The position numbers and the translations under genes were made by a program. The notes beneath the pieces were generated by a model. It ran no database searches and had not been told where the DNA came from. It saw nothing but the letters and a program-made list of their open reading frames with translations. Positions 1 to 24,908 of a stretch of 55,246 nt of DNA are shown here, one piece after another. Within the stretch, counting starts at the first letter, position 1. Every line of letters starts with the position of its first letter. Location of the stretch: the IMG/VR virus record IMGVR_UViG_3300037424_001305, positions 1 to 55,246 of that record. One strand, written 5' to 3'. The stretch comes from a virus. Its lineage: Duplodnaviria > Caudoviricetes.

Positions 1-3000
1 GGCCTCAGGCACCGCCTGGAGCTTTTCCAGGACCTGCTGCAACTGATGCCCGGTGGCGTTCTTGTTCCGGGGGACTGCGCGTTCGATGGGCCCCGGGGGA
101 GCCCCGGGGTCCTGTCGACCCAGTACGGACTCGATATCCCGATGGTCAGTCAGCTGGCTCTGGGACAAAAGATGGGCCTGGAGATCCGGATTGGGAATCT
201 TCAACATCTCCCGGAACTGCTCCCGGTAGGGGCTCTCCGTGGCACGATCGTAGTTAACCAGATGGGAGACGAGCTTCGCCTGGATGATGGGGTTTTCGCC
301 TCGCTCATGGACAACCTGCATCAGCTCCGGGTAGACTGAGGAAGTCGTATCGGCAGCGCGCCAGTCGAAGAGGCGAGAAAGAGCTGCCGGGGTCTGAATC
401 TCCCGAGCCAGGGAGGTGATGTCTTCAGGCTGGAGCAAATCGAGAACAGTAGAGCCAGTCTCGTTCCGGAACAGATTCCGGCGGTCCTCGGGCGTGAATC
501 GATTGCTGGGGATGTAGCTAACTGCCCTCGCGCGGACATTCTCGTCCGGGTGCGTGGCTGCTCGGTGGACCAAGTCGGGGTGGGCGCTGAACCCCAGATG
601 AGCATTCTCGATCAGATTCCTGGCTCCCGTTTCGCCGACGACCTCCTGATTAAGGACCTCATGAGCAATCTTCGGGGTTACTTTACCCCCCCTGAGAATC
701 ATCCCCTGGAGACTCGGATCATTGAAGAAGATGTGCTCGCTGGCCTCCTCGGGCAGCGCGTTGTGGTAGGCAACGAACGCTCTGGTGCCAGGATTCTTCG
801 CCGCCTCCCAGAGTAGATCCTCTGGGGCATCGTCTCGCTGGAGAGCAGCCTTCTGGAGTTTAGGGTCATCGCCAAAGGCATGACGCCTTAGAATGTCCTG
901 GGGGACCTTCTTTGCACTCTCCAGGATCATCTTGGTCATGGAGATATCTCCGCGTTTCTCGACATGGTCCAGGGCTGCCCGGACATGACGCTCCGAGCCA
1001 TGGCGGGCAAGTGTGAGGGCCCGCAGGCTCTGTTTGTTCACTCCTTGGAGCTTCTCCTGGATGGCGTCCAGAGCCCGTTCACTGTAGTTACTGTGGGGAT
1101 TGTAGACCAGCGAGTCCAGCTCATGCACCCGCCCATTGGCCAGCACGGACTCCACCAGCTCAGGCTTTCTCAGCAGGGGGATGAGTTTCTCGCGAAGGTA
1201 GGGGTTGTCGAAGGCCTGGTCCTCATGCTCGGGATTCTTCTCAAAGTGAGGATGGTCGAGCAGTTGTCCCTTGCTGTATTCGGGGGTCGCGGCGTTGACG
1301 GCTTTGAGCGCGGCCCCAAGGTGCTCGGAGGAGAAGTTTTCGTGGCCAAGGAGGCCGCCGAACTGGAGCGGCTGCGCGCACGTCAACCGATCCACGACCT
1401 CATCGCGAACCGCCTCACGGACCCTGGGGTGCGGGTCCTTGGCCATACCCATCAGTGGATAAGAGCCGATCGAGCTGGGCCTATTCTTGACGGCACTGTA
1501 CCTGATGGCCGGATTCTCGTGACTGACGGCCTCCGCGGTACCCATGTCGCCGATGTCCATGGGGACAAGGTCGTCATGCTCATCCTTCTGGAGGCTGTCC
1601 GGCTTCAAGACCAGGGGCTCGGTCTTTTGGACTTCCTGAATCTCGTAGGCATCCAGGGTCTTGATGCCGTGCCGCTGAGCCGCCGCGTACCGGTGATTAC
1701 CATCGACCAGATGGTAGCGGTCCCCGAGGCGACGCACCACCACAGGCGGCAGCCGGTCGCCACCGCGGGCCATGCGCCGGTACAGGTCGAGGCGCTCCCC
1801 GTTGACGGGCAGGTTGCCCGGATCCAGGGCGTCCGTGCTGACAGTAATAGACTTCAGGCGGTTCGGGTCACCGCGGCCGAATACCTGGACCAGCTGGGCT
1901 TGGAACTTGCGGTCCCAGTCCTCGCGGGCCGGCGTTCCCTTGGCAGGGATACTGATACCGTCCTTTGACCTCCAGGGCTTCGGCTCCTTCGCCTTCTTCT
2001 CCAGCTCAGCCTTCAGGGTCTCCTCGTAGTCACCGCGGGTAGCTGCTGCCCCGTGACCAAACCCCGGGGGACTACCAGGCCCCGCCATGGGCTTGTAGCC
2101 GAGTCCGTGCTTTTGGCTGAGCTTCTCGTGAAGGTGGCCGGCGGCCTCACTGTGAGAACCGCCTCGGACGCTTTTGATGCCCAGGTGTTTCAGGGCGTGC
2201 GTGTACAGGGCCTCGTAGGCCTTCTCACCGAGACCGAACCCACGGTGGTCTCTATGGATGAGGGCATGCGGAGTCAGCGCGCCATCCTTCAGGTCGCTGC
2301 GAACCACGCCAACATAGTCCGGCCCCCGATGGACCACGACCTGGGGACCGGGCATATACTCAACTCCAGGCATCCCAAAGCCAGCCGCGTTTCCTGTCAA
2401 CTCTTGCACTACATGCAGTCGATACCCGGCCTGTCGCTGCTCCGGAGTCAGCATGTGGCCGTAGTCGAAGTACTCCGGGTCTTCCAGGGGAAAGCCCTCG
2501 GGACGGGGGACCCTCTTGCCGGGCTTGAGGTCACCGATGGCCATCTTGGCCAGCTCCGACTTCTGTACCGGCGGCGTCCAGGGCTGCCAGCCGTGCCGAG
2601 GATGGAAGGTCTTGTAGACGTTATCGGGGTGCAGCCTGCCGATGGCTTCCGGAACGGTTTTTGGATGACCAGCCAAGGGGGGTCCCACAGGCTTTGGAGT
2701 GGGCGTCCAGCCATGCTGGGGGTGAAAAATGGCCGTGGGCTCCAAGGTCACCACGGCGTGAACCGGGGTCCAGGCGCTCTTAGTGGCTCGGTCGTGGACG
2801 TAGCCCACGCCCGGAACCTGGCGGACGCCCTTCACCTGAAACTCGCCAGCAGTGATGGCCTCGGAGTGGCGGTAGCAGAATTGCTTCGCGTCCTCGGGCC
2901 TCCACTGGCCGTAACTGTGGATTGGCGTGTTGGAAGGGAACTCGAAGATGGTGGGCACCCCGGTCTGCTGGTCGGCGTCCAGTCGGACACCGTAGCCGGT

Positions 3001-3717
3001 ATCTGCACTGCCGCCCGTGGCGGTCAAAGGCAGCTTGATCTTGCTGCCGACCTTCCAGTTAGTACCCTTGCGGTCCTCGAAGGTGTGGTAGAGGGGCTCA
3101 CCGGCGGAAACACCCTTCGCAATGCTGGTGAGAAAGCGGTTGGCCAGGTGCTGGTGGAGGGGGTCTTCCCAGCGGGGCTCGTAGCCTGAGATGCCCATCT
3201 GCTTTGCTGCATGGCCGGTGATGTTCTGGCTGTTATCATGACTGTAGCCCCAGTGCCAGTCATTGGTCTGGCGCTTGTCGCCGGCCTTCTCCAGGTCGTC
3301 CTTCACCGGGAACTTGACGCCCAGGAGGTCCAGGGTCACGTCCTGGGGGTTGTGCCAGCGGAGGGAGGAGTCTTCCAGCTGGCTCGGAGTCAGCCACCGG
3401 AAGCGGACGATTTCCTGGTCGGGGTCATTCTCGGCCGTGGGCTCGGCGTCAGGGCCGACCTCGGCGCGGTAGCAGTGGACCCTGACCTTGCCGCCAACGG
3501 TCTCCGTGCCCAGGTGCTCCAGGGAGGTGGGCTCCAGGCCCGTCTCTTCGAGCATCTCCCGGACGGCAGCCTTCTCGGGGCGCTCATTCGGCTCTAGGTG
3601 CCCACCTGGCAAATTCCAGGTACTGTCATCGGAGCGAAGCCCGACCAGGAGCTTGTCGCCCCGGAAGATGGCCACAGAGGCCACCTCGGTCGGGTTCTTT
3701 TTTCTCTTAGAGGCCAT
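1..3717 (-). CDS. Large polyvalent protein (3' end beyond window): NUDIX hydrolase + ART-like + GNAT + ParB/Srx-like + HEAT-like helical repeats
   Basis: Hand-translated from ATG at 3717; frame stays open to position 1 (>=1239 codons). Nudix box GGHLEPNERPEKAAVREMLEETGL; GNAT motif HRGFGLGEKAYEALY; ParB-like PPVVVRRLGDRYHLVDGNHRYAAA; HEAT-like DPHPRVREAV and HPDENVRARAV. Confidence 0.85.
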   Translation of the reverse strand, partial: MASKRKKNPTEVASVAIFRGDKLLVGLRSDDSTWNLPGGHLEPNERPEKAAVREMLEETGLEPTSLEHLGTETVGGKVRVHCYRAEVGPDAEPTAENDPDQEIVRFRWLTPSQLEDSSLRWHNPQDVTLDLLGVKFPVKDDLEKAGDKRQTNDWHWGYSHDNSQNITGHAAKQMGISGYEPRWEDPLHQHLANRFLTSIAKGVSAGEPLYHTFEDRKGTNWKVGSKIKLPLTATGGSADTGYGVRLDADQQTGVPTIFEFPSNTPIHSYGQWRPEDAKQFCYRHSEAITAGEFQVKGVRQVPGVGYVHDRATKSAWTPVHAVVTLEPTAIFHPQHGWTPTPKPVGPPLAGHPKTVPEAIGRLHPDNVYKTFHPRHGWQPWTPPVQKSELAKMAIGDLKPGKRVPRPEGFPLEDPEYFDYGHMLTPEQRQAGYRLHVVQELTGNAAGFGMPGVEYMPGPQVVVHRGPDYVGVVRSDLKDGALTPHALIHRDHRGFGLGEKAYEALYTHALKHLGIKSVRGGSHSEAAGHLHEKLSQKHGLGYKPMAGPGSPPGFGHGAAATRGDYEETLKAELEKKAKEPKPWRSKDGISIPAKGTPAREDWDRKFQAQLVQVFGRGDPNRLKSITVSTDALDPGNLPVNGERLDLYRRMARGGDRLPPVVVRRLGDRYHLVDGNHRYAAAQRHGIKTLDAYEIQEVQKTEPLVLKPDSLQKDEHDDLVPMDIGDMGTAEAVSHENPAIRYSAVKNRPSSIGSYPLMGMAKDPHPRVREAVRDEVVDRLTCAQPLQFGGLLGHENFSSEHLGAALKAVNAATPEYSKGQLLDHPHFEKNPEHEDQAFDNPYLREKLIPLLRKPELVESVLANGRVHELDSLVYNPHSNYSERALDAIQEKLQGVNKQSLRALTLARHGSERHVRAALDHVEKRGDISMTKMILESAKKVPQDILRRHAFGDDPKLQKAALQRDDAPEDLLWEAAKNPGTRAFVAYHNALPEEASEHIFFNDPSLQGMILRGGKVTPKIAHEVLNQEVVGETGARNLIENAHLGFSAHPDLVHRAATHPDENVRARAVSYIPSNRFTPEDRRNLFRNETGSTVLDLLQPEDITSLAREIQTPAALSRLFDWRAADTTSSVYPELMQVVHERGENPIIQAKLVSHLVNYDRATESPYREQFREMLKIPNPDLQAHLLSQSQLTDHRDIESVLGRQDPGAPPGPIERAVPRNKNATGHQLQQVLEKLQAVPEA

Positions 3718-4290
3718 CTAAACTCTCGCCCCCTTACGGAGGTTTTCTTCAGCCCACAGCGGCTGCTGGTTGCTGAAATGACAAGCAGCGACTAGCTGCT
3801 CTGGATCCGCTAGATCAAAACTAGCCATCGGCTTTATGTGGTCGATGTGCCATTTTCCGATCCCCAAGCCCCAATTCTCCCAATTCATACCAGGCTGGAA
3901 CTGTGATTCCAAATGGGCCCTTAGGGCTAGACGTACCCTTGTCCGTAGATTCCCAGACACTCTCCGATTAAAACCGGCCAACCAATGGCGCCGATCCGCA
4001 TCAAGTCTTTCAACCCTATGACGCTTGTAATATCGGCTCTGTATCTTGCGAACGGCATCTCGATTCTTTTGTTTCCACAGCTTGCTGTTGTTCCTGGTCC
4101 TTTCCAGATTTGCGGCATGCCAGACTTTTGCTCTTGATTTACTGGCTTCCGGATTTTTAGCGTACCTATTTTTGTCGTAACGGCTCATACAGGCCCTGCA
4201 CCATGACTGAAGTCCGTCAGACCTGCTGGAATTCTTTCCGAATTCACCCGGCTCCCTGCATTTAGGACAGATCTTTTGATTCATGGGCAC
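3718..4290 (-). CDS. HNH endonuclease (homing-endonuclease-like) with N-terminal Zn finger
   Basis: CPKC...CRAC Zn finger; WHIDHIKP...CHFSNQQPLWAEENLRKG HNH motif. Confidence 0.8.
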   Translation of the reverse strand: MPMNQKICPKCREPGEFGKNSSRSDGLQSWCRACMSRYDKNRYAKNPEASKSRAKVWHAANLERTRNNSKLWKQKNRDAVRKIQSRYYKRHRVERLDADRRHWLAGFNRRVSGNLRTRVRLALRAHLESQFQPGMNWENWGLGIGKWHIDHIKPMASFDLADPEQLVAACHFSNQQPLWAEENLRKGARV

Positions 4291-4306: not shown

Positions 4307-4807
4307 CTACTTCCTCTTGATAACGACGCCCAGCTGCTCGTAGGGTTCGTCCTCGCCGTCCTGGTCGTGCCAGCGCTGACGCAGGGTCTTCCAGCTCATG
4401 TTCATCTCGGTACCAGGGACCGGATCCAGGATCCGGACGCCCTTTCGGTCAGCCCCGACCACTACCACGTAGTGCCCGTTATCATCCGTGGTGGCGTAGT
4501 TGGGGCGCGAACGGTCGGCCCAGGCCTGGATGGCGATGATGACCGGGTGACCAGCCTTCACGGCCTTGGACAGGCGCCGTTGGCCCATCTTCTCGAAGCT
4601 CAGGGCCGTGAATCCGTACTCGCGGGCCACCCTGATGATGTCCCTGGGGAGGGTGCCGTCCGCGGGCGTGCAGTTCAGCTCCCTGGCGAGGGTACTCTCA
4701 GCCCTGGTAATGCCGAAATGTCTCAGGACGGCCCGGAGGCAGGCGGGGCCGCAGGTGTAGTCCGTCTCCTGGACCACCGGGGGGACCATGACGTCAGCAG
4801 CCGCCAT
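4307..4807 (-). CDS. C39-family cysteine peptidase
   Basis: QETDYTCGPACL (Q..C), GHYVVVVG (H), ILDP (D). Confidence 0.8.
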   Translation of the reverse strand: MAAADVMVPPVVQETDYTCGPACLRAVLRHFGITRAESTLARELNCTPADGTLPRDIIRVAREYGFTALSFEKMGQRRLSKAVKAGHPVIIAIQAWADRSRPNYATTDDNGHYVVVVGADRKGVRILDPVPGTEMNMSWKTLRQRWHDQDGEDEPYEQLGVVIKRK

Positions 4808-5662: not shown

Positions 5663-6078
5663 TACAGTCTCGACATCCCATCCAGGCCCTGGACCCCGAT
5701 GGCGTTGCTCAGTAGCCCTTTGGTGACCTTAGAGCCCTCCGTGAGGGTCAGGATAGCGTTCACGGTGCCCCTGATGGTGTCGGAGCTGCTGATGCTGAAC
5801 TTCCAGATGCTGGGGTCCTGGCTGTAGGGCTGGGTGGCAGTCTTGGTGACCTTCCGGGCGTCGTCGATGTTCTGGAGGACGACGGTCAGCGTGGCGGCCG
5901 CCGCGGGAACGTAGCGCCGGCCCTCGGGCACAAATCCATCTACGGCCCGGTCCCTGGAAAGGTCAACGAGCTGAAAGTAGACGTCGAGGGAATCCCCCTC
6001 AGTCATTTCCTGGCGTTCGGTGTAAGACCAGGTATTGACGTCCGCAATTGTATTTAGGATTCGGCAACTGAGCAGCAC
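5662..6078 (-). CDS. Putative virion structural protein (beta-rich)
   Basis: 138 aa, coupled to the neck gene, preceded by the AATCT late-type motif. Confidence 0.45.
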   Translation of the reverse strand: MLLSCRILNTIADVNTWSYTERQEMTEGDSLDVYFQLVDLSRDRAVDGFVPEGRRYVPAAAATLTVVLQNIDDARKVTKTATQPYSQDPSIWKFSISSSDTIRGTVNAILTLTEGSKVTKGLLSNAIGVQGLDGMSRL

Positions 6079-6110
6079 GGTTCACCCTGGGGTCAAGATT
6101 ACGGTCCTAG

Positions 6111-6515
6111 CTAGGTGAGCAACCGCCAGATGCCCTCGGGGACCTGCTCCTCGCGCACCTTGAGAATCCGCTCCGGGAACTCCAGAAAGCCCGGCTTCAG
6201 AAGCCGGGGTTCGTCGCCCCGGTCGGAGTCCACGCCCTGGACCCGGAGCTTGATCTTCTCCTCGTCACGTCGGCGGCTTACCACGACCCGGACCTCCAAG
6301 ACCCGGCCATACTGCAAGCCGGCGCAGCGACCCAGGGCGTGGCCGTAGACGATGATATCGCCGGCCTTCAAGGGCACGCCAGCCTTGTCCTTAAATTCCG
6401 ATTCGACTACCACTACGTGAACAGGGCAGTGTTCACAGACCTTGGTGTCGCAGTAGCTACTATGTCCATCTGCCCCTACAAGCTGGGCCATGCAGCAGGC
6501 GCAGTCCGGGGTCAT
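6111..6515 (-). CDS. Hypothetical protein
   Basis: ORF in an ATGA-coupled array of small genes. Confidence 0.6.
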   Translation of the reverse strand: MTPDCACCMAQLVGADGHSSYCDTKVCEHCPVHVVVVESEFKDKAGVPLKAGDIIVYGHALGRCAGLQYGRVLEVRVVVSRRRDEEKIKLRVQGVDSDRGDEPRLLKPGFLEFPERILKVREEQVPEGIWRLLT

Positions 6516-6862
6516 CGGTTCTTCCTCGTCAGGGGTGCAAGAGCCCGGTTCCGGTCCACGACCTCCTGCCTCTCCTTAAAGTACTCGCCCATCTCCAGGA
6601 CACTGCTCGCCAGCCTGGACTGCCTGTTGCCGATGGTCGTCAGGTTATCAACCACCAGGCGCTGCTCCTCGGCGACCCGCCGCTGCTCCTGGGCGAGGAC
6701 CGAGACCTGTACCTGCTGGACCCGCATGGCCTTCACGAGGGCAGCCTCCCAACAGCCGAAGCCAGCACTTACTGCGGCGATAACCCAGCCCAGGACCCAG
6801 AGCTTGCGGAGGCGGCGGAGCTGAGCTACCTCGGCAGTGGACATGAAGGTGACTTCGCTCAT
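6512..6862 (-). CDS. Hypothetical membrane protein with coiled coil
   Basis: TM segment LWVLGWVIAAVSAGFGCW followed by a Q/E-rich helix; 4-bp overlaps on both sides. Confidence 0.6.
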   Translation of the reverse strand: MSEVTFMSTAEVAQLRRLRKLWVLGWVIAAVSAGFGCWEAALVKAMRVQQVQVSVLAQEQRRVAEEQRLVVDNLTTIGNRQSRLASSVLEMGEYFKERQEVVDRNRALAPLTRKNR

Positions 6863-7182
6863 GGCTTCACCAGCAACGCCTCAGCGGCCGCCCACGCCTT
6901 GCGCTCGGCTTCCGCCTCCTCGAACTGATGTACGCTGTCGTAGTTGAGGATGGTGTGCTCAGGGTCAATGCTTGGCTTCCACTCCAGCAAGCCGCGCAAG
7001 GCGGCCTCCAGATCCATCACGCGAGCTTCGGCCTTCTCTTGGGCCTCTATCCTGTCTTCGAGTTGCTGATTCAGGTGCATGACCAGCCCGGGTTTGTCGA
7101 GCGTGCCCACGTAGATGCGCTGTAGGTCTGCCAACTCGGCCTCCAACTCGGCCTCCGGCGTGGCCTGCTTCGGCTCAGTCAT
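6859..7182 (-). CDS. Hypothetical coiled-coil protein
   Basis: ATGA-coupled ORF. Confidence 0.6.
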   Translation of the reverse strand: MTEPKQATPEAELEAELADLQRIYVGTLDKPGLVMHLNQQLEDRIEAQEKAEARVMDLEAALRGLLEWKPSIDPEHTILNYDSVHQFEEAEAERKAWAAAEALLVKP

Positions 7183-7556
7183 GCTTCTCCTTCCTCGCGC
7201 CCCTTCGTGTACAACAGGGCCATATCAGCATCACAGGTGTCGCAAGGGCCGCCTGGGCTCCATCCCAGGTCACGCCGCGTCCGGGCGGCACAACAGTCAC
7301 AGAAGGCCACGCGAGTCCTGAGACTCTCCCGTAGCTGCTCCACCATTGTTTCCAGCTCCTTCACGCGGGCCTGCGCCGCAGTCAGCCGGGCCTCCAGGGC
7401 TTCACTCACCTGCGCCTCGGTGGCGTCGAGGATGGCGAGAGCGGCGGCCCTACCTGAATCCCATCGCTCTTCTGCCGGGCTGGGCTCCGCGGGGTGGAAC
7501 GCCGGACACGGTGCGGCCAATGCCTCTCGCACCTGTTGAATCTGCTCGTCTGTCAT
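7179..7556 (-). CDS. Hypothetical protein (coiled coil + Cys cluster)
   Basis: Likely start MTDEQ at 7556, overlapping the upstream stop (ATGA). Confidence 0.6.
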   Translation of the reverse strand: MTDEQIQQVREALAAPCPAFHPAEPSPAEERWDSGRAAALAILDATEAQVSEALEARLTAAQARVKELETMVEQLRESLRTRVAFCDCCAARTRRDLGWSPGGPCDTCDADMALLYTKGREEGEA

Positions 7557-16226: not shown

Positions 16227-17606
16227 GAGGACATTCTTGCGGGGCTGAAGGGCGCCGAGCGTCAGGAAGCGGAAGTACGCCTCCGGCTGGCTCAGCTCAG
16301 TCACCGCCAGCTTGAGCCGGCTGAAGGGGGCCAGCTCCTTCACCAGCAGGGTGTCGGTCTCCAGGAGGAAGCCGGTCACGAAGCCAGGCTGCTTGTTGCC
16401 GATGTCGATGAAGCTGGTGCTCGAAGTGCCCAGCTTCACGCGGCCGATGAACTTCAGGACGGTGGTTGAACCCGCGGCACCGCGGTACACGTTGAAGTGC
16501 GTCACGTTCGACAGGCCGGCGTGCGAGATCGCCAGGGTCACGCCGTGACCAGCGGTCACGATGGTCGCCGTCTGGACACCCGAAGCCGCCGACTCACCCA
16601 CCTCGTTGACCGCGGTCACCTTGTAGGTGTACGCCTGGCCGGCCAGGAAGCCGGTGGTCACGCCCGAGATGGCACCCGGGGTCGCCGAGGTCAGGGTCGG
16701 GGTCGCGGGACCGTTCGACCGCTGGCGACGGACGCCAGTCTTGCCGGACAGGAAGCGGCTCGCCTCCAGCTTGACCTCGCCACCCGAGGTCCACTGACGC
16801 TCCAGGTCGGCGCCGGACGCACCCTGAGCAGAACCCGCGAGGATGATGCGCTCTTTGGCGAAGCTGATCTTGTTGTGGTTCGACAGCACCAGGGGGTCGA
16901 CGAACAGGCGGTCGGCCTGGCCGTGGTTCATCTGGCTGCGAACCCAGGCATCCTCGACGTTCTCCTGGGTCAGGGTCGAGCCACCGGCAATCACGACCGA
17001 CTCGTCGCTGCCGTACTCGTTGAACATCAGGTCCTGGGCGTTCGCCATGAAGTCCGACTGGCGGATCTGCACGTCAACACCGAGCATGTTCGGCAGGTTG
17101 GGGATTGCACCCATGTTGCCGTCGAAGACACCCGAGTTCGAGAAGTCCGCCTTGCCGCGGAAGAGGTCGAACTCCACGTCACCGGCCAGGAGCTTGGCGG
17201 CGTCACCAGCAGCTCGCTCGTCAGCCTTCTTGCCGTCCACGGTCTGCACCAGCATACTGGGCAAGGTGGTGCGGCGGTGATGCGCGTAGTAGCACATCGG
17301 GAAGGTGATGCGCCGGTAGTCGCTGTCCTCGTTCTGACCGACCTGGCCTTCGAGGGCCGCCGAGGCACCGAAGATGCCGTAGCTGATCTGACGGTCGAAC
17401 TGAGCCAGGGTCGACTTGCAGCTCTCGCTCTTGATGACCTTCTGGAGCTTGATGTGCTTGTCGTCGTAGGTCGTGACCTCGATCGCCGAGGACAGATCCT
17501 CGACCATGAGGGCCGCGCCCTGCACGAGCCGCGAGGGCTGAGCATCATAGTTGCCGGCTTCCAGCGCCTTCACCAGCTGCGAAATGGTTTCGATTGCTTG
17601 AGACAT
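16209..17606 (-). CDS. Major capsid protein (SPO1/Twort-like, with FN3/Ig-like insertion)
   Basis: 465 aa; GAALMVEDLS...STLAQFDRQISYG, LFRG, YTYKVTAVNEVGES insertion; follows protease and scaffold. Confidence 0.9.
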   Translation of the reverse strand: MSQAIETISQLVKALEAGNYDAQPSRLVQGAALMVEDLSSAIEVTTYDDKHIKLQKVIKSESCKSTLAQFDRQISYGIFGASAALEGQVGQNEDSDYRRITFPMCYYAHHRRTTLPSMLVQTVDGKKADERAAGDAAKLLAGDVEFDLFRGKADFSNSGVFDGNMGAIPNLPNMLGVDVQIRQSDFMANAQDLMFNEYGSDESVVIAGGSTLTQENVEDAWVRSQMNHGQADRLFVDPLVLSNHNKISFAKERIILAGSAQGASGADLERQWTSGGEVKLEASRFLSGKTGVRRQRSNGPATPTLTSATPGAISGVTTGFLAGQAYTYKVTAVNEVGESAASGVQTATIVTAGHGVTLAISHAGLSNVTHFNVYRGAAGSTTVLKFIGRVKLGTSSTSFIDIGNKQPGFVTGFLLETDTLLVKELAPFSRLKLAVTELSQPEAYFRFLTLGALQPRKNVLVDNLR

Positions 17607-17636: not shown

Positions 17637-18545
17637 TTACTTCTCCAGGAGGCCCTCGATGTCCTTGAACTCGGTGTTGCCGAGCGTGTAGCTGAAGAGC
17701 TGATCCTTCTGGCTCTTGTTCAGCTTGTTGCTCTTCATGGTCTTGCTGATGCGGACCTTGATCTCGGCCGCCGTCGGGGGACCCCTGCGGGTATCCTCGC
17801 TCTTAGCCACCGGCTCCACGCCAGTGACAGCCTTGCGGATCGGGGTACCCAGCTGAATCTCGACGGCTCGGGTCAGCAGCTCAATCTGCTTCGCCTGGTC
17901 CTCGATCTGCGCCTTGAACGTAGCCTCAGACTTCTTGACGTCGTCCGGCACGGCGGGCTTCTGGTCCTTGAGAGCGTTGCCGCTCGCGGGAACAGGCTCC
18001 ATCTCACCCTTCATGGCCGGGGGCGGCATAGCGCTCGCGCTTGCCTCAGGACCCGGAGGCGCTCCGGCCTCAGGACCTGCCGGGGGAGCCATAGGAGGCG
18101 CACTGGCCTCAGGGCCACCCTGGCCGGCGCCCATCTTCTCGAAGAGGGCCTGCTTGACCGCCATGTAGTAGACCTTCAGGGTCTCGGGATCCATCTGGGC
18201 AAACTCTGCCTTCAGGGCCTCGGGGTCCATGGGACCACTCTCCTCCGCGGGAGCCGCACTGGCCTCCGGGGAAGCGCTCATCTCCGGGCTGCCTTCGGGA
18301 GCAGGTGATGCGCTGGGGTCGGTTGCACTAGCTTCAGGAGCACCCTCAGTAGCCGGAGGAGGCGGACTGCCGGCCTCGGCACCACTGGCCTCCGGGGGTC
18401 CGCCCGCGGCTGCACTGCCTTCGGGCTCACCCGGCGACTCCTCGGCCGCCTTCTTCAGGGCGCCCTGCTCGGACTTCAGAAGGTCCGTGAGTTCCTTCTG
18501 CGCCTCTGCGAGAATCGCCTTCAGTTCGGAATCCTTGAGCTTCAT
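17637..18545 (-). CDS. Putative scaffold protein
   Basis: Acidic Pro/Ala-rich low-complexity protein with coiled coil, immediately upstream of the MCP; many x-K-S/A sites. Confidence 0.7.
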   Translation of the reverse strand: MKLKDSELKAILAEAQKELTDLLKSEQGALKKAAEESPGEPEGSAAAGGPPEASGAEAGSPPPPATEGAPEASATDPSASPAPEGSPEMSASPEASAAPAEESGPMDPEALKAEFAQMDPETLKVYYMAVKQALFEKMGAGQGGPEASAPPMAPPAGPEAGAPPGPEASASAMPPPAMKGEMEPVPASGNALKDQKPAVPDDVKKSEATFKAQIEDQAKQIELLTRAVEIQLGTPIRKAVTGVEPVAKSEDTRRGPPTAAEIKVRISKTMKSNKLNKSQKDQLFSYTLGNTEFKDIEGLLEK

Positions 18546-18578: not shown

Positions 18579-19031
18579 TTACTGGCTCGACAGCATGCCC
18601 CACTGCGCACTGGGCTCGAAGGTAGCAGCCCACTTGGCGGTGTTTGCGATGTCGGTGACGTTCGGGGCCGTGCCATTGGTGCTCTCCACGAGGACCACCC
18701 GAGCCGCCCGGGCCAGAACGACCGCCAGGGGAAGCAGCTTCTGGGCCGTGGTGTTCACGTCACCGGGGGTGCTGTCCTTCTCGAAGTTGATGAGCAGCAT
18801 GTGCGGAGTGTAGACATTCTGAGTCAGGCCCAGGATGTCCTTCGCCAGGGGCTGGCTGATGGGCATCACCTTGATGATGCAACCGGGGTCGCCGGCACCG
18901 TTGTCACCGAGGGTGATGAGAGGGTTCTCATCGGTGTCGAAGCTCTTCGCGACGGTGAGAGCGCTCTGGCGCTGGCTCAGCTCTTCGGCGATGTCATCAC
19001 GGAGGGCGATTGCCTTCTTGCTAGTGGCCAT
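18579..19031 (-). CDS. Putative virion/head protein
   Basis: 150 aa, first gene of the scaffold-MCP unit, AATCT motif upstream. Confidence 0.5.
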   Translation of the reverse strand: MATSKKAIALRDDIAEELSQRQSALTVAKSFDTDENPLITLGDNGAGDPGCIIKVMPISQPLAKDILGLTQNVYTPHMLLINFEKDSTPGDVNTTAQKLLPLAVVLARAARVVLVESTNGTAPNVTDIANTAKWAATFEPSAQWGMLSSQ

Positions 19032-19126
19032 GTTCTTTTGCTCCTTGGAAGTTAGTGATCAGTTCGATCTAATCAGATTGATTAACTGCGACACATAGGC
19101 GGTACTTGCGACACAATCTACCTCCC

Positions 19127-20233
19127 ATGACGAATCTGTTCTGCCTCGGCTGCCAAACCAATAGACCCGAAACCGACTTCAGAGAAATGCCAACCCCCAT
19201 GTACAACAGAACCCGTCAATGGGACTGTATCTCCTGCGAACAGGCCGGCCAGGACAAAGCAACCCAGGCGCTTATTGCGTTAGATCAGAAATTCAAGGGA
19301 GTTAGATGTGGTAGTTGCGGGTGTCCATCGAAACTGGATCCTGAAGGTCTTTGCGCCAAATGCCAGAAGGAAAGGGGATTCAGATTCTGTGCTATCTGCA
19401 ACCGAAAACGCCTACTCCTCATGGACTACTACCCAGGCCGGAGTGAGTGCACTGATTGCTCAGGGGCCAGGCGGCGCATGGACTACACTCAATGTCTGGG
19501 GTGCAAAATCCGGCACCACAAAAACGCTACCTGCTCCAGGATTTCAACCTGCCCAGTCGCCAGAGCTGCGCATCCCAAAAAGTGTATCCGCTGCAAGAAC
19601 CCCAAAGGGGGTGGGGGGTCTGCTGCAATCTGCGCGGCTTGCATCAAGGCCGCCTCAAGGCCCTTCAAGTGCCGCTGGTGTAAGCGCATCGAGTCCCTAG
19701 ATGTCCCATTCTTTTCCTACAGGGTCTGCGTAACCTGCAATGAAACGCCGACAGATAAACTCCTGCGGATCAAAAAATTAAATACGGACATGCGTAAGTA
19801 CGGTCTAAGTGCGGAGCAGTATCAGGGGCTACTCGCGGGCCAAGAAGAAAAATGCAAGATCTGCCACAAGTCGGATAGTCGTCGACTCGGAGTCGACCAC
19901 AATCATGTAACGGGCTTGGTCCGAGGTCTTCTCTGCACGAACTGTAACCTAGGACTTGGTAATTTCAAAGATAACCCAGCCTTACTTAGGACCGCGGCCA
20001 AATACCTGGAAAGTCACGCTACGACTTTACGGTCTCCATCGGAGCCACAGAGCCCATTGCCGGGGCAGAAGCTGACGGCGTGTGCACGACCGGCTCAGGA
20101 GCCGGAGGGCGGGGCTCAGGGGCCGGAGGTGGCTTCAAGGGAAGCTGGCTGCTCTCCAGGGGAATCGGGCCCTCAAAACCTGGCACCAGAGAATGGGCCA
20201 TCGAGGGAGCCTTCCCGGGTTGGAACTTGCTGA
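19127..20233 (+). CDS. Endonuclease VII-family homing endonuclease with multiple Zn fingers
   Basis: KYGLSAEQY...CKIC...VDHNHVTGLVRGLLCTNCNLGLG; many CxxC pairs; ATG 19127 lies 7 nt after AATCT. Confidence 0.8.
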   Translation: MTNLFCLGCQTNRPETDFREMPTPMYNRTRQWDCISCEQAGQDKATQALIALDQKFKGVRCGSCGCPSKLDPEGLCAKCQKERGFRFCAICNRKRLLLMDYYPGRSECTDCSGARRRMDYTQCLGCKIRHHKNATCSRISTCPVARAAHPKKCIRCKNPKGGGGSAAICAACIKAASRPFKCRWCKRIESLDVPFFSYRVCVTCNETPTDKLLRIKKLNTDMRKYGLSAEQYQGLLAGQEEKCKICHKSDSRRLGVDHNHVTGLVRGLLCTNCNLGLGNFKDNPALLRTAAKYLESHATTLRSPSEPQSPLPGQKLTACARPAQEPEGGAQGPEVASREAGCSPGESGPQNLAPENGPSREPSRVGTC

Positions 20234-23200
20234 TCCACTTCCGGCTGTCCAACCCTACCATTCCCGCGGGATCATACTTCTGCTTCTTAGCCTCGTAAAG
20301 AGCTTGGTCCGCGATCTGAGGGCTAGTCCCGAAACCGAGACCCATACTGAGCTTGTGCACGCCGGCCACCGGAGGCACAGCCTCCAGATGTTGACGCAGT
20401 GTCCTGGCGAAGCGGGCCGCGTGCTCATGGGTCGGGAAGTGAGCCACGAATTCATCACCACCGACCCGGAAGAGCTTCCCCTCCTTGGGGGCCGCTTCAT
20501 CTACCGCGGCCCGAAGGGCTCCGCCCATTGCCCGAATAGCCCGATCCCCGGTCTCATGGCCGAAGCGGTCATTCACGGCCTTGAAGTCATTGGCGTCCAA
20601 GGCGACATGAATGCCACCCTTGCTTTCAGCCCTGGTCTTGAAATCCGTGTGCGCGAACTTGTTGCCCATCACATGCCCGGTCATCGGGTCCTTGAAGGCG
20701 TGGGCCCGCAGAGCCTCCGCATGCTTGGGGTCCAGGTGGCCCTGAGCCACCAACTGGTCAAGACGCCCCAGGGCCTCGTGCACCGACTGGGCAGCCTGGG
20801 GGTCACCGGGGTCAGCCTTCAGTAGCGTCTCCAGGACGAACTCCATGTCCCGGACCACGGCTTCCTGCTTCTCCAGGTGCCGGATCCGAGCATGTCCGTT
20901 CTTCACCTGGTGAAGGAGCTGCTGAGCCTGGCTGTCATCCAGAGCCTGGCCGTTGAGGTGCGGGTTCCCGGCCCGAAACTCCAGGAAGTCGTGGCCGTCT
21001 TGATTGGGGTGCTGGATACTGAACCCCCGGCGGACGGGAATCGGGGCCGACGGCATGGGCCAGAGGCCGGTGTCCGGATAATGCGCCAGCTCATGGAGGC
21101 TATAGACCTCGTGCCTGGGGCTGTCCTTCAAGTCCTGGGCCTGTTGCTGCCGGACCTCATCCAGAGGCCCTTCGGTGAGGTGGCGCCCCAGGTCCCCATG
21201 GTAGTCCTCCAGGATATGGACGTGATTGCCGGCAGTTGTGAAGCGGCCGGCGGAGTGCCGGCGGATCTTCAGGTCAGGGCCGGGCCTATACACGTAGGCG
21301 TGGTGAATGTAGGGGGCAATCTCCCGGAGGCCGGCGGTGGCCAGTCGGTCATCTGCGATGGACTTCCGGAGGCCGATGACCAGGGCCTGGGTCTTGGCCA
21401 AAATGGGGTTGTAGGCCGGATGCGGAGCGCTCACCACCGGCGGCACCGGGACCTCGGCCTTGTTCATAATCGGGAGGATGTGGGAGAAGAAGGCCATCAG
21501 GGCCGGGGTCTCGCCCCAGCGCTGCCTGAGGGCTTCCACGGCGCCGGCAGCCTTCACCCAGACAGGGGTGTCGAGGTGATTCTGGTGCCGCGGCCAGGGG
21601 TCCTCGGACTTCCCGAAGTCGAAGCTGTCATCCTCGGGGACATGCTGATTGTGGATAGGGTGCGGGTGCAGCCCATGCTTGATCATCTCGTCCTTGACGC
21701 TGTCCCAGAAGACACGATGGTCGGTGTCGCCGTTGAAGGTCATGGACGGACGGCCGCGCATCTGGTCGTAGTGACCGACAGTCAACCAGTGCAGCCAAAA
21801 TGCCGGAAACACGGACTGTTGCTCGCGGCCCCGGAAGTGTTTAGGGAAGGTCTCCAGGACGTGCTTGACAGCCGGATGCCTGGTGAAGAAGTTGTGGTCG
21901 ATGGCCCGGAGCAGCTTCTCGTTCTGGGGCTTGCTCATGACCTGGGTTTGGAGCTTCTCCAGCATGGGCTCACCCCGGAACTTGTGCGGGCGATTCGGGT
22001 CGGGCTCCAGCTGTAGGTCGAAGGTGGAGCGAATCATGTGCCGGTCGGGGACAATCATGTTGCCGCCACCGTACATGGCCAGGAGGTATCGGGTCAGCTT
22101 CGGGCCATAACCGGAGAACCCGCCGTGCTCTGGCACCGTGGCCCCGGCTTCACGGCCGGCCCGGGAGGCGACCCTATTGGCGCCCTTGGCCCGGAAGGCC
22201 TCGGCCTTCAGGTCCATCAGCTCAGCGGCAATGCCCTGGGTGTCGTCCTTGTGGGTAGCCGTCAGGTGCTCCAGGTACGGGAACAGGAGGTGTGCGTTCC
22301 GGAGCCCGCGGACCTGCGGCAGCTCGCCGACGTCACGCTCACCGGGCCCCATGCCGGCGCCAGTGTCTGGCTGTTTAAAGGCGGAGGTCTCATAATGCTC
22401 ACGGTTCCACTTCGGCACCTCGCCGCCTGTGGCCCTGGCCTGGAACTCCTGGAGAGCGTCCTCGCTGATGGGCTGCATGGGGTCGACCTGGCCCTCGTGC
22501 ATCATGTCCATGTAGTGGCCGTAGTACAGCTCCTGAAGGCTGACGGGTGTGTTGCCGGTGACAAAAACCTGTCCCAGACGACGAGCCACAAAAAAGGTGT
22601 TCTCCACGATAGGACACCAGACCCGGGTCTTAGCTCTGTAGCGACGGATGTGGTCCTTGTTGACCCGGTAATTTTGCCGGCCCAACTTTGACACGTACCA
22701 ACAAGTAGTCATCTTCGGGATGTTCTTGAGCTTCTCGGACTTCGGCTCATATTTGCTCATGTCCCGATTGACAGCATTGGAGGGATTCCCAGTCATCAAG
22801 AGCAGGGCCTGGAAGGCTCCGGCCTGCTCCTCTCGTCCCGTTGCCAGGACCTGACGGTCAGCCTGTCCTTCATGGGTTTCCGTCGACCCGTCTCCCAGGA
22901 ACATGGCATCTCGGAGCCGGACCAGGGCCTCAGCACCCAGGGTCAAGAGTACGGGGACCGTCAGGGTCCGGTCAGGGCACAGGGCCGTTAGTAGGTCGGT
23001 GAGCCTTTTGCCGACATACCAGTTGCACTTGTTCTCGTTGTACTGGTAGCGACCGAACTCTCCCGGGGCCAGGCGCTCCAGGAGGGCCTGGATGCGGGCA
23101 CACTTCGCGGGATTCCCTGACGGGCTCTGGACCAGGAATGCCCGGAGTCTCTTGGTTGTGTCGCTGGGGCTCGGCTTCCTGATGAAGCCGTCCGTGACGA

Positions 23201-24908
23201 ACCAGCCCAGAAGCTCGGCCTCATCTGGAGTCAGGGAGCTGTTCTCTGGGGCGACGTAGTCCCCGGACCGGTGAATCCTCTCGGCATGGGCCAAGGTCGC
23301 CGAGGTCTTTTCGGCTACGTGGCCTCGTTGCGTCGTAACGAGCCACCGGTGATCGGGGGTTGTAACGACCTTCAAGCTGCGGCTGTCGATCTCGACCAGG
23401 TCCCCCTCGTAGTCAGGGAAGCGCCGCAGGTCGAGCATGGACTGCCATTCCAAAGCCATAGTGACTGGATTCTTGGTCAAGAGAACATCGTTCTTCTTGA
23501 GGTCGAAGCCCTTGACCCAGCCACGCTGCGTCAAGGCCTCAGTCTTGTCATCGAGGCAGTTGGGGCTCATGGCCGCGAAGATGACCGATTTCGCGATGAT
23601 ACCGTTCGGCACCTTACCCTCAGACAGGGCCTTGTTGAGGGGCATCCAGTTGGACATGGCTCGCTGCCAGGGTTCGTGCACCGTCCTGATGATGTTGTTG
23701 TACTGCTCTTCGTTGATGGTGCCGTCCTGGAGCCCCTCATCAGGGCGCAGGAGTGCGCGGTAGACCTTGTCGTCGGGGTAGTGCTGCTTGATACCGACCC
23801 TGGTGGCCCCCCGGCCGGCTCCCGGGGCCGTCATCAGCAACTTGCCGCCGGGCTTCATCTCGACGCCGCCCCTGGTACTGGGCTTCATGGCACCCTTGGG
23901 CTCGGACTCACGGTCAACCCGGGGTTCCGTGGGCATGCTGGGATTGGCCTTGGGGAGGTCTCCGGCTTCAGCCTTCCTAAGCTTCAGTCGATAATCGTCG
24001 GCGATGCCAGCAAAATGGTCCAGGAAGTCGTCACTGGCCTCAGGCAGCTCGGCCTTCAGGGCGGCGCGGGCCTCTTCCTTGGTGAAGTCCCAGTTCTTGT
24101 CCAGGAAGGACTTCATGACGCTGTAGACCTTCTTCTTGACGTCCTCACGCTGGAGGGCGGCGCCACCACTGAGGGTCGACGGAGCCCCGGAAGGCATGCC
24201 GGCCGCCATGGCCTTCTTCAGCCGCTTGAAGACCTTCAGGGCCATCAGGGACTTCACGAGGTCCGAGTGGTCCTTCTCGCCGAAGTCCTGGTACTCGGTC
24301 TCCACGGTGCCGCCCAACCGCCGGAAGAGGCTGTGTTCATTTTTCTCCGCGAGATCCGCAAGCACGTCCCCAACCTTCTGGATGGGCTTCTTGTCGAAGC
24401 CCTTGGGGGCGTTGGGGTCCTCCAGGAGCCCAGAAGCCGCAGTCTTGTTGGCAGGCTTCAGGGTCAGGGCGACCTTCCGGACCGCGGTCCGCTTGAGGAT
24501 ATTTCCGTCCCGCTCCAAGGTGCTACCCTCGACACTGAACCGAATCAGGATGGGCTCGTGGTTTGCATGGTGGTCACGAATCTGGGCCGCGATGGCCAGC
24601 GCGCCTGCGTGGCCGGCGCCGTCATAGAGCCGGCTGATACCGTAGATGAAGGGGTGCTTGACCTTCTTCCAGAACTCCCGCTGGCGGGCGTTCTCGCAAT
24701 CGGACTCCCGGAAGATCTTCTTCACGGAGATAATGCGACCCACAGACTCCTGGCCCCGGGCCGTATCCCCGTTTTCGTGCTCCCAATTCAAGGTGCCGTC
24801 GCCGGCTTCCAGACTGGAGATGTCTGCGCCATCGACATCCAGGATCTCTCCCGAACTGTCGATAACCTCGGACCCGAAGATTCCGTCGATGGTCATCCCA
24901 GTAGACAT
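20019..24908 (-). CDS. Prohead protease polyprotein: HK97-type protease + capsid N-arm copy + HhH glycosylase-like domain (with intein) + GGDEF domain
   Basis: Protease IDSSGE/NWEH/FSVEG/VALTLKPAN; HhH GYGPKLTRYLL..IVPDRHMIR; GGDEF DPMTG, DANDFKAVNDRFGHETGD, FRVGGDEF, ADQALYEAK; start taken as MSTG at 24908. Confidence 0.85.
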   Translation of the reverse strand: MSTGMTIDGIFGSEVIDSSGEILDVDGADISSLEAGDGTLNWEHENGDTARGQESVGRIISVKKIFRESDCENARQREFWKKVKHPFIYGISRLYDGAGHAGALAIAAQIRDHHANHEPILIRFSVEGSTLERDGNILKRTAVRKVALTLKPANKTAASGLLEDPNAPKGFDKKPIQKVGDVLADLAEKNEHSLFRRLGGTVETEYQDFGEKDHSDLVKSLMALKVFKRLKKAMAAGMPSGAPSTLSGGAALQREDVKKKVYSVMKSFLDKNWDFTKEEARAALKAELPEASDDFLDHFAGIADDYRLKLRKAEAGDLPKANPSMPTEPRVDRESEPKGAMKPSTRGGVEMKPGGKLLMTAPGAGRGATRVGIKQHYPDDKVYRALLRPDEGLQDGTINEEQYNNIIRTVHEPWQRAMSNWMPLNKALSEGKVPNGIIAKSVIFAAMSPNCLDDKTEALTQRGWVKGFDLKKNDVLLTKNPVTMALEWQSMLDLRRFPDYEGDLVEIDSRSLKVVTTPDHRWLVTTQRGHVAEKTSATLAHAERIHRSGDYVAPENSSLTPDEAELLGWFVTDGFIRKPSPSDTTKRLRAFLVQSPSGNPAKCARIQALLERLAPGEFGRYQYNENKCNWYVGKRLTDLLTALCPDRTLTVPVLLTLGAEALVRLRDAMFLGDGSTETHEGQADRQVLATGREEQAGAFQALLLMTGNPSNAVNRDMSKYEPKSEKLKNIPKMTTCWYVSKLGRQNYRVNKDHIRRYRAKTRVWCPIVENTFFVARRLGQVFVTGNTPVSLQELYYGHYMDMMHEGQVDPMQPISEDALQEFQARATGGEVPKWNREHYETSAFKQPDTGAGMGPGERDVGELPQVRGLRNAHLLFPYLEHLTATHKDDTQGIAAELMDLKAEAFRAKGANRVASRAGREAGATVPEHGGFSGYGPKLTRYLLAMYGGGNMIVPDRHMIRSTFDLQLEPDPNRPHKFRGEPMLEKLQTQVMSKPQNEKLLRAIDHNFFTRHPAVKHVLETFPKHFRGREQQSVFPAFWLHWLTVGHYDQMRGRPSMTFNGDTDHRVFWDSVKDEMIKHGLHPHPIHNQHVPEDDSFDFGKSEDPWPRHQNHLDTPVWVKAAGAVEALRQRWGETPALMAFFSHILPIMNKAEVPVPPVVSAPHPAYNPILAKTQALVIGLRKSIADDRLATAGLREIAPYIHHAYVYRPGPDLKIRRHSAGRFTTAGNHVHILEDYHGDLGRHLTEGPLDEVRQQQAQDLKDSPRHEVYSLHELAHYPDTGLWPMPSAPIPVRRGFSIQHPNQDGHDFLEFRAGNPHLNGQALDDSQAQQLLHQVKNGHARIRHLEKQEAVVRDMEFVLETLLKADPGDPQAAQSVHEALGRLDQLVAQGHLDPKHAEALRAHAFKDPMTGHVMGNKFAHTDFKTRAESKGGIHVALDANDFKAVNDRFGHETGDRAIRAMGGALRAAVDEAAPKEGKLFRVGGDEFVAHFPTHEHAARFARTLRQHLEAVPPVAGVHKLSMGLGFGTSPQIADQALYEAKKQKYDPAGMVGLDSRKWISKFQPGKAPSMAHSLVPGFEGPIPLESSQLPLKPPPAPEPRPPAPEPVVHTPSASAPAMGSVAPMETVKS
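22551..23558 (-). mobile_element. Intein (336 aa, LAGLIDADG) in the glycosylase-like domain of the protease polyprotein
   Basis: SPN|CLDDKTEALTQRGW; TPDHRW; LLGWFVTDG and AMFLGDG; VFVTGN|T. Confidence 0.9.

Follow-up and report, generated by a model that had tools for sequence, protein, structure and literature searches.

A Lys-centred motif shared by the head proteins and two multi-enzyme chains of a phage contig related to Myxococcus phage Mx1 is a candidate cutting signal of its maturation protease

The internal proteins IPI-III and Alt of phage T4 are processed by the prohead protease gp21, which cuts after Glu in L/I-x-E; the cleavage motif of phiKZ-type phages, A/S/G-x-E, differs from the Lys motif considered here. 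Alt is an ADP-ribosyltransferase (ART) and is placed among capsid cargo in passages of the survey of polyvalent proteins by Iyer et al. 2017 (PMC5512222). These passages describe chains of ART, ParB-like, NUDIX/GNAT and GGDEF domains that are encoded by late genes, rapidly shuffled and predicted to be packaged and delivered. The rare assemblin-like peptidases in such chains are said there to lie 'always' at the C-terminus, and the passages describe no inter-domain cleavage code of a prohead protease. For phiKZ gp175 and SPN3US gp245, passages of a second paper (PMC10052503) describe a maturation protease with a short motif whose substrates are many internal head proteins, a part of them ejected. 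Here we analyse a 55,246-base stretch of viral DNA (Caudoviricetes; IMG/VR record IMGVR_UViG_3300037424_001305), referred to as the window, which is the whole record and has a CheckV completeness estimate of 34%. It encodes two giant chains, a prohead-protease-led polyprotein (P2, 20019-24908) and a NUDIX-led polyvalent protein (P1, 1-3717). Coordinates are those of the window, and features lie on the minus strand unless marked otherwise. A previous reading of this DNA from its letters (the sequence-only reading) had proposed that both chains are loaded into the prohead and cut at shared Lys motifs into free effectors.

The major capsid protein (MCP), portal, terminase, helicase, sigma factor and other genes of the window share 36-53% identity with Myxococcus phage Mx1 (169.6 kb), and the gene order is kept. 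In our best explanation, which we favour as a whole with moderate confidence, the contig comes from a large Mx1-like phage of Myxococcota (~160 kb) with an SPO1/Herelleviridae-type head module (portal, protease, scaffold, MCP), and the maturation protease divides the P2 and P1 chains into separate enzymes after they have been loaded into the capsid. The Lys-centred motif is likely the best candidate for the cutting signal of that protease; its enrichment is confined to the scaffold, portal, MCP N-terminus and the two polyprotein families. Comparison of sequences and models makes this cleavage code, together with autoprocessing of P2, likely. The computation bears on motif specificity, conservation and placement, on domain identities and on the pattern of fusion and fission; the cleavage itself, the position of the cut after Lys, the packaging of P1 and ejection we infer.

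The motif proposed in the sequence-only reading, [LVIMF]-x-K-[SAT], is here called the loose motif. Every string listed in that reading is present, and three of them (LAKM, TLKAE and LQKDE) depart from its own motif. Measured in the window against 300 composition shuffles per protein, the loose motif gave observed/expected counts of 5/2.6 in P1 (reversed motif 6), 12/4.8 in P2 (reversed 2), 7/1.5 in the scaffold, 2/1.6 in the MCP, 5/3.0 in the portal and 36/33.1 in the other 56 gene calls. It is thus too permissive: it lies above chance in the scaffold and P2 of the window and not in P1, MCP or portal. The tight motif, h-x-K-[SATG]-[ED] with h a hydrophobic residue, was found at 3/0.27 in the scaffold (p=0.003), 4/0.92 in P2 (p=0.017) and 3/5.5 in all other genes.

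The excess of the tight motif is larger in sets of relatives. In 39 scaffold ORFs (open reading frames; the ORF upstream of each MCP homologue) 174 copies were counted where 12.7 were expected (reversed 8 vs 12.6), with at least one site in 39/39; the earlier claim of repeated copies in the scaffold holds by both motifs and in the family. The 119 P2 homologues contain 324 vs 92.1 (reversed 113 vs 94.9), and the Arg version is depleted in them, 45 vs 71.1. The portal ORFs, 58 in number, gave 101 vs 22.7 (reversed 9 vs 23.8). P1-type proteins were counted as nine database proteins (22 vs 6.2; reversed 9 vs 6.7) and as 12 locus ORFs (27 vs 5.5; reversed 6 vs 5.5), the latter remaining from 17 after three inside protease polyproteins and two of <400 residues were dropped; 0/200 shuffles reach the observed count in either set, and the 21 proteins pooled give 49 vs ~12. 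Control families are flat: G327 1 vs 4.0, the MuF-like G459 13 vs 14.0 and the adaptor-like G279 1 vs 2.5. Shuffling within 20-residue blocks, which keeps local composition, left the picture unchanged. The context of Lys, taken free of any motif, is also skewed in the scaffolds, with L at -2 3.4x, S at +1 2.1x (also A) and E at +2 2.3x; TerL has no such skew. Enrichment in the head proteins and both chain families is found with the tight motif when relatives are included, reversed motif and controls showing no directional excess, and is not found with the loose motif in P1, MCP and portal of the window. Because L, K, A, S and E abound in charged, helical linkers, the motif might be a meaningless product of composition, and the loose form is indeed expected 2.6-4.8 times per giant ORF and is not significant in P1, MCP and portal of the window; a 3.5- to 14-fold excess over global and local shuffles, with the reversed motif and the control families flat, makes that account scarcely credible.

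A comparable distribution was seen in Mx1. Among its 38 coding sequences, the tight motif is missing from the four genes on the reverse strand and from the seven early genes that precede TerL; copies cluster in the scaffold, portal, NUDIX chain (3 sites), kinase (2) and neighbouring late genes, and TerL has 2 (p 0.067). We note that several hypothetical late proteins encoded before the sheath in Mx1 (locus L001, 24404-39282) also carry it, for example that at 33963-35369 with 2 sites (p 0.003), which suggests, at the level of sequence, a wider set of protease substrates in this phage.

P2 read from stop to first start spans 20019-24938; 24908 is an in-frame ATG, used as the start in the sequence-only reading, and the database gene call of 1625 residues begins at 24896, the length being 1625-1639 residues by start codon. 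It comprises the prohead protease, a coat N-arm mimic, an endonuclease-III-like domain split by an intein, a middle region and a GGDEF domain. We found 202 homologues of 900-2000 residues, with a conserved N-terminal part of ~450 residues and variable C-termini. Residues 1-450 used as a single-sequence query against viral contigs returned no relative; an alignment query returned 63 loci. The protease domain (24369-24896; P2 residues 15-190, with the His of NWEH and the Ser of FSVEG) shares 29% identity over 163 residues with the SPO1 gp3.2 head-maturation protease (BLASTP, E 1e-10) and matches phrog_1028 at E 1.6e-5. H40, S121, E123 and G124 (P0001 numbering) are invariant in 24/24 homologues. 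An AF2 model of P0030, an intein-less homologue of 923 residues (71-sequence alignment, pLDDT 82.8), resembles the herpesvirus proteases 4v07, 1o6e and 2wpo (Foldseek probability 0.93-0.97, TM by target 0.33-0.38). No protease model in Pfam or NCBIfam matches this domain. The gene is placed between portal and scaffold/MCP. Sequence and model together confirm the protease already recognised in the sequence-only reading as an assemblin-fold prohead serine protease of the SPO1 gp3.2 / HK97 gp4 type; it is predicted to cleave head proteins.

Behind the protease, at 24138-24224, P2 contains a copy of the N-terminal arm of the coat protein, RLKK/AMAAG...GGAALQREDV, preceded by an L-x-K/A site (a slash directly after Lys in such strings marks the predicted cut). 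It was located with a hidden Markov model (HMM) of MCP residues 9-42, which matches P2 239-267 at E 4.6e-8 and 118/120 P2 homologues; its Lys is invariant in 71/71 sequences. The same HMM matched no P1-type protein. We regard this N-arm mimic as probably a capsid-targeting segment. As P2 holds both the only prohead protease and the coat N-arm mimic, it would have to be present in the prohead. The stand-alone proteases of SPO1 and P100 have a related feature: ~25 residues after a K/S site copy the N-arm of their own MCP. In SPO1 (L065, 4416-5186 vs 5950-7356) the protease reads LDKSLEAGYEV...GGDVFRKESL and the MCP LNKALEAGHTV...GGGAFRVESL. In P100 (L066, 4055-4849 vs 5914-7320) the protease reads MKSWTTGHGTTPDTQVNAGALRRESL and the MCP LKSFTTGYGITPDTQTDAGALRREFL. 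Judged from these sequences, a copied MCP N-arm may be a general capsid-address device of the SPO1/P100-type protease lineage.

The MCP itself (16209-17606) is of the SPO1/Herelleviridae type (phrog_752, E 2e-45; 53% identity to the Mx1 MCP). Its predicted maturation cut, LVK/A at 17565-17576, would remove 13 residues and is conserved in relatives. In the window and 39 further loci L-x-K occurs in 40/40 MCPs, so that the motif noted earlier at this N-terminus is both present and conserved; A follows in 38 of them and T in 2, and then L/M-E-A-G. The ~10 residues ahead of the Lys are variable and the sequence past it is highly conserved, the pattern expected for a short propeptide. A second MCP string, VIKSE at residue 57, was rejected as a maturation cut; it is not conserved in relatives. 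The SPO1 MCP has LNK/ALEAG at residues 21-27 and that of P100 ALK/SFTTG at 22-29. Some 23 residues are reportedly removed from A511/P100-type MCPs and HK97 gp5 is said to be cut at K103/S104; for neither was confirmation found in the literature searched. A literature search for measured cleavage sites in Herelleviridae, SPO1 or A511 gave nothing usable. The precedent cited in the sequence-only reading (K/S in HK97, similar in Herelleviridae) was not verified in the literature searched, which offered the HK97-like phage phi12 only, with cleavage at K or R in the P1 position according to passages of PMC8569155.

The scaffold candidate (17637-18545, 302 residues) was assigned from SPO1-like synteny (protease-scaffold-MCP) and motif count, and has no match in Pfam or NCBIfam. 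Its tight sites are LLKSE at residue 22, VKKSE at 203 and VAKSE at 246, with further h-x-K-[SAT] at 30, 236, 266 and 275. The scaffolds of relatives carry 3-10 motif copies each, and that of SPO1 has 11 h-x-K-S sites in 244 residues; such sites also occur in the portals and protease N-termini of SPO1 and P100. The portal (33466-36813, interrupted by an intein; Pfam Phage_portal) contains LEK/AL at 16, LSK/SL at 59 and LTK/SE at 1063, with a C-terminal hot spot in 41/58 aligned sequences. The portal strings of the sequence-only reading are thus real, and lie outside the range 1-24908 to which it had assigned them. We favour a cut after Lys because P3, P1 and P1' then agree across the MCP, scaffold and polyprotein sites.

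Four conserved sites in P2 lie at module borders. AEKNE (24336-24350), a K-x-E site just after the protease domain, has K in 115/119 and E at +2 in 111/119 homologues; its equivalent sits inside the disordered stretch 181-222 of the P0030 model. LRK/AE (23967-23981), where the protease module ends and a Pro-rich linker follows, has L in 95/120 and K in 115/120; in P0030 it is at a helix end ahead of the disordered stretch 337-368, and protease-only ORFs of relatives (for example L039, 305 residues, and L054, 328 residues) end near this position. FGK/SE (21603-21617), after the endonuclease-III-like domain, has a hydrophobic residue at -2 in 108/115, K in 104/115 and E at +2 in 95/115. Its flanks are variable, acidic or Gly/Pro, and the P0030 equivalent, MKKSE at 762, adjoins disordered residues 764-770. 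LLK/AD (20811-20825), before GGDEF, has K in 83/115, then A or S in 66; the alignment with a separate GGDEF gene of Mx1 starts ~12 residues upstream of it. A fifth pile of motifs in the P2 alignment, near residue 1180, looks like a portion of a conserved helix. The low-confidence stretches of P0030 (181-222, 239-257, 337-368 and 764-770) are the places where sites lie or abut.

The conserved endonuclease-III-like domain, here domain X, measures ~390 residues and lies in two parts, N-terminal (23559-23801, from the homologue model, Foldseek and Atlas) and C-terminal (21624-22550, from comparison with Mx1, the P0030 model and Atlas). Its fold appears endonuclease-III/HhH-GPD-like. In P0030 the pLDDT exceeds 90 across residues 370-760, and Foldseek matched archaeal Ogg (3fhg, probability 0.60; 3fhf, 0.41). 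Of 10 structure rows in Atlas, 8 are EndoIII/HhH-GPD clusters; their TM by row is 0.53-0.61, and every one falls below the Atlas bar. PF00730 had no match in the window at E<=10 (14/14 control genomes match) and none in 24 homologues; Pfam and NCBIfam gave nothing, and the profile of alignment A2 found no match among PDB sequences. The glycosylase-like domain of the sequence-only reading therefore survives as a fold-level lead with weak structural matches and has no support from sequence profiles. That reading also missed the intein that splits the domain (22551-23558, 336 residues, with LAGLIDADG motifs), inserted at SPN/TPV. Its first residue is Cys and its last Asn, followed by Thr; the Pfam Intein_splicing match is weak. 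It is absent in relatives, which have an uninterrupted MSPNTPVP, and is an insertion relative to Mx1.

The middle region of P2 (20826-21602) has no match in Pfam or NCBIfam, and part of it is a separate 150-residue gene in Mx1. The GGDEF (diguanylate-cyclase-type) domain (20277-20615) had been correctly named: it matches Pfam at E 4.7e-14 (52.9 bits, cut-off 23.8) and NCBIfam TIGR00254 above cut-off (48.6 bits), and the RVGGDEF letters are intact. The last domain of P2-type chains varies, with GGDEF in 12/24 and PI3_PI4_kinase in 7/24 of those scanned; the precomputed list adds ParB, HipA-like and other domains. Most relatives add domain X behind the protease module and some have the protease module alone.

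P1 is longer than 1239 residues, with its C-terminus off the contig, and its Mx1 homologue has a different domain order. A full-length search returned nine proteins only, NUDIX words dominating the candidate list. The NUDIX domain is at 3358-3684 (Pfam E 4e-19), as read earlier. The ART-like domain of the sequence-only reading (2686-3258; P1 residues 152-339) is confirmed at the level of the fold (AF2, pLDDT 85.8): all 16/16 PDB matches found by Foldseek with E<=0.001 are ARTs (probability 0.97-1.0, best E ~1e-4), and the lower-ranked matches listed are mostly ARTs, with an anthrax lethal-factor domain and lymphostatin among them. An Atlas feature search with this segment gave scores of 0.78 only, which is noise. 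The module has 111 representative homologues in proteins of 76-7334 residues. The family consensus has LYHG, LTAT and one invariant Glu, which by pattern-matching may correspond to the ART triad R/H - S-T-S - E. In proteins of up to 7334 residues the module often stands behind linker strings of the PRD-x-x-GRW/F type, which are those of MuF-type phage toxin chains; the Lys motif is absent from these proteins, and such lineages presumably use other joints. The GNAT-like block (2068-2565) and the ParB-N-like block (1564-1974), both claimed earlier, occur as recognisable domains in relatives; in P1 itself the GNAT match is weak (Pfam E 0.005) and the ParB_N match (E 5.8e-5) misses the Pfam cut-off. 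The rest of the chain (1-1560) is an orphan helical region with weak HEAT matches, and for P1 720-1239, the last 520 residues, no homologue was found among proteins of 681-2169 residues, the size range searched.

Five junction strings divide P1. LEK/AG (3280-3294) follows NUDIX, and the next segment's first five residues are disordered in the model; a tight site immediately behind NUDIX, at residues 137-163, is present in 9/21 P1-type proteins. VQK/SE (2554-2568) precedes the GNAT-like block, within a low-pLDDT stretch (P1 345-385) and where the homology block 383-550 begins. TLK/AE (2005-2019), with Thr at -2 off the motif, stands before the ParB-like block at a homology-block border. The strings VQK/TE (1618-1632) and LQKDE (1579-1593) are present at the end of that block. 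The AF2 model of P1 145-385 is folded at 10-200 and of low confidence at both ends, where LEK/AG and VQK/SE lie. The blocks that P1 shares with relatives by BLAST (1-159, 383-550 and 582-718) have borders within ~15 residues of the five strings. The expectation that sites fall in disordered linkers is thus borne out for sites of P0030 and P1 145-385, in or next to low-confidence stretches, and fails for some motif positions that are helical. The ParB block of P1 is found inside the protease chain in L031, L032 and L035, and PI3_PI4_kinase occurs in both P1- and P2-type chains; the polyproteins therefore appear to share one module pool, joined at the motif.

These features suggest the following sequence of events. 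Cutting by the assemblin-fold serine protease most likely takes place behind the Lys of an L/V/M-x-K sequence that continues S/A-(E/D); for the MCP and the N-arm mimic the sequence is L-x-K, then A-L/M. Through its copy of the MCP arm, the P2 chain is probably docked while the procapsid is being built. Once the shell has been assembled, the protease would break down the scaffold at 3-8 sites, remove 13 residues from the MCP and also cut about five conserved sites within its own chain. Once the intein has been spliced out, P2 would thereby release an endonuclease-III-like module, the middle module and the GGDEF cyclase inside the head. P1, with its NUDIX, ART-fold, GNAT-like, ParB-like and HEAT-like parts, would bear the same signal and exchange modules with P2-type chains, and it too is probably packaged, cut and then delivered alongside the DNA.

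Several points weigh against this proposal. The Mx1 paper (full text) contains no proteomics, and the cleavage is predicted only. The placement of the cut after Lys, as opposed to elsewhere in the motif, comes from the consistency of the sites and from the HK97 data reported above. Homologue counts are not independent, and the size of that effect is given by TerL, which has a mild excess in both orientations (34 vs 21.5; reversed 36 vs 22.6). The structural evidence for P2 derives from a homologue, P0030, with 42% identity over the N-terminal region. In Mx1 the protease chain has 1 tight site where 0.71 are expected, with looser L-x-K-[SA] sites present, and the GGDEF and 150-residue proteins are separate genes without motifs; the cargo status of GGDEF therefore does not hold throughout. 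Certain conserved copies of the motif fall in predicted helices (P2 near 1180; LKKAE of P0030, at a helix end) or in the portal body (34/58), and the presence of a copy therefore does not prove a cut. The motif could be a real signal for docking or structure, binding the procapsid interior or the portal or capping the helices of linkers, with the polyproteins staying intact. Besides these helical and portal-body copies, such an account can point to the predicted status of the cuts and to the N4 virion RNA polymerase, packaged unprocessed according to passages of PMC5512222. We nevertheless judge it quite improbable: the motif is directional and its Arg version depleted, Ser dominates at +1 in scaffolds, 3-10 copies are found per scaffold, a protein that must be removed, the MCP changes from variable to conserved around the Lys, and the protease of an HK97-like phage has K or R at P1 in the passages of PMC8569155.

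The case for P1 as capsid cargo is weakened by further points. P1 starts directly with NUDIX and has neither an N-arm mimic nor another recognised targeting signal, its C-terminus is missing, the tight motif in the window copy is not significant (2/0.55, p=0.11) and 3/5 of its junction strings depart from the motif. Only the head-assembly proteins and P2 might then be substrates, P1 being a cytoplasmic or tail-/baseplate-associated polyvalent enzyme outside the capsid whose motifs hitch-hike on modules exchanged with P2-type chains or are cut outside the head; a Peptidase_C39-like gene just upstream (4307-4807) could process it. C39 peptidases cut after Gly-Gly, and Gly-Gly is not the junction pattern here. 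The P1-type class is moreover enriched as a whole (49 vs ~12, reversed flat), the post-NUDIX site recurs in 9/21, the gene lies among late head-completion genes and a NUDIX-portal fusion occurs in another PHROG family (phrog_15528). We therefore consider exclusion of P1 from the capsid unlikely, though less so than the docking role, and retain the reading in which both chains are loaded and cut.

If the cuts are real, they would define a prohead protease code of the SPO1/Herelleviridae type: Leu-x-Lys, the cut, then Ser or Ala and often Glu. From such a code the proteins of the mature virion could be predicted for at least 200 uncultured large phages and for Mx1. Real cuts would also reveal a chain that begins with the protease, in which one enzyme both matures the capsid and carries exchangeable enzyme cargo, and would give a first functional context to the orphan EndoIII-like domain X (DUF7178-like clusters) and to the widespread ART-fold module (111 representatives). 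A bolder extension, which we hold tentatively and think possible rather than probable, is that protease and N-arm mimic form a general loading platform: enzymes fused behind a joint of L-x-K followed by S/A-E, such as the EndoIII-like module, the GGDEF cyclase, the PI3/PI4-kinase-like domain and the ParB-like nuclease, would be carried in, freed and injected. Were this so, a ready-made cyclic-nucleotide synthase and, via P1, an ART, a NUDIX hydrolase and a ParB-like module would be delivered into Myxococcus at infection, where they could alter host c-di-GMP signalling or block nucleotide-based defence ahead of any phage gene expression. Mx1 and its host M. xanthus are cultured, and virion proteomics can test the prediction directly.

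The minus-strand gene order is TerL, a 327-residue gene, portal, a nuclease-like insert and the MuF-like gene; four plus-strand genes follow, then, again on the minus strand, P2, a 150-residue gene, scaffold and MCP. The conserved 150-residue protein between P2 and scaffold (18579-19031) has no motif and no family match in Pfam/NCBIfam, with 22 tblastn matches in the loci. After the MCP, ~10 kb (roughly 6.1-16.1 kb) of small ORFs, including ThyX and an ice-binding-like lipoprotein, extend up to the adaptor/P1 genes; beyond these small ORFs lie two head-completion genes, the C39-like peptidase, an HNH endonuclease and P1. Both giant multi-enzyme ORFs are present on the minus strand as first read. 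They do not belong to a single head module, and the placing of the whole of 1-24908 within one is not upheld, the ~10 kb of small ORFs splitting the MCP from the adaptor and P1. The lipoprotein-like gene directly downstream of the MCP (14935-16095) encodes a signal peptide, a lipobox-like Cys, DAGPQP repeats and Big_5 and Ice_binding domains (PF11999, E 2e-72), has a third-position GC of 0.89 and is unusual in a phage. The 166-residue Peptidase_C39-like protein (E 3e-16) has no counterpart in the 41-kb Mx1 locus compared (L001) and could be a second processing enzyme or cargo. Elsewhere the window encodes a PAPS-reductase-like protein (28637-29467, plus strand), a Cpn60/GroEL-like chaperonin (47444-49291, plus strand; E 4e-37) and, at the contig end, a fragment of a class II ribonucleotide reductase (53384-55246, plus strand).

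Four inteins interrupt four head-assembly genes (TerL, portal, MuF-like and P2), and all are absent from the Mx1 homologues. That of TerL (37819-41091) has a LAGLIDADG_2 core (E 7.6e-27) and is inserted before the FFVVDEVD motif; that of the portal has C...VHN/S borders and LAGLIDADG_3; the MuF-like gene (30613-31992) carries a mini-intein of ~195 residues inside an HPNCR/C motif. Low third-position GC marks two free-standing HNH/endonuclease VII-like genes: one (3718-4290) abuts the P1 start and the other (19106-20233, plus strand) overlaps P2 in antisense at its 3' end. A CapR/REase-like gene of 479 residues (31996-33435) sits between the MuF-like gene and the portal. Taking inteins, HNH/endonuclease VII-like and CapR/REase-like genes together, the head region is heavily colonised by selfish elements.

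A literature search, made on listings and passages, found no statement of a code of Leu-x-Lys followed by Ser or Ala and no paper describing such a system. On prohead proteases together with diguanylate cyclases only the polyvalent-protein paper appeared relevant by title, and the words protease, GGDEF, intein, polyprotein and NUDIX are absent from a 2026 myxophage preprint. Compared with T4, the proposed system is alike in that enzymes would be loaded into the prohead, trimmed at a short motif by the maturation protease and injected, with an ART in the cargo, here proposed from sequence. T4 uses separate small cargo proteins with an N-terminal capsid-targeting sequence, whereas the present chains have 1200-1600 residues, one is headed by the protease and the motif is Lys-centred. 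No T4-type N-terminal targeting peptide removed at L/I-x-E was found, and we regard the logic as T4-like without counting the system as a member of that family. The phiKZ/SPN3US system differs in protease lineage, and its cuts mostly remove N-terminal propeptides, not separate enzyme modules, in the passages of PMC10052503. P1 and P2 are polyvalent in having at least two unrelated effector domains each, a late/virion gene setting and rapid domain shuffling among orthologues; they depart from the described polyvalent proteins in that the protease of P2 is N-terminal, followed by the coat N-arm mimic.

A further likeness is to SPO1 gp3.2/gp3.3/gp6.1, which share homologous protease and MCP, gene order, an L-x-K/A-L-E-A-G MCP N-terminus, a K-S-rich scaffold and the N-arm mimic; SPO1, however, has a stand-alone protease of 256 residues and no enzyme cargo. 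HK97 gp4/gp5 delta and herpesvirus UL26 resemble P2 in the assemblin fold, in a basic P1 (phi12) and in a protease borne into the shell by a fused assembly segment, but there the fused partner is the scaffold and not enzymes. What differs from these systems is the Lys code shared with an SPO1-type head, the protease-first chain with its N-arm mimic, and joints between enzyme modules that bear the maturation protease's own motif.

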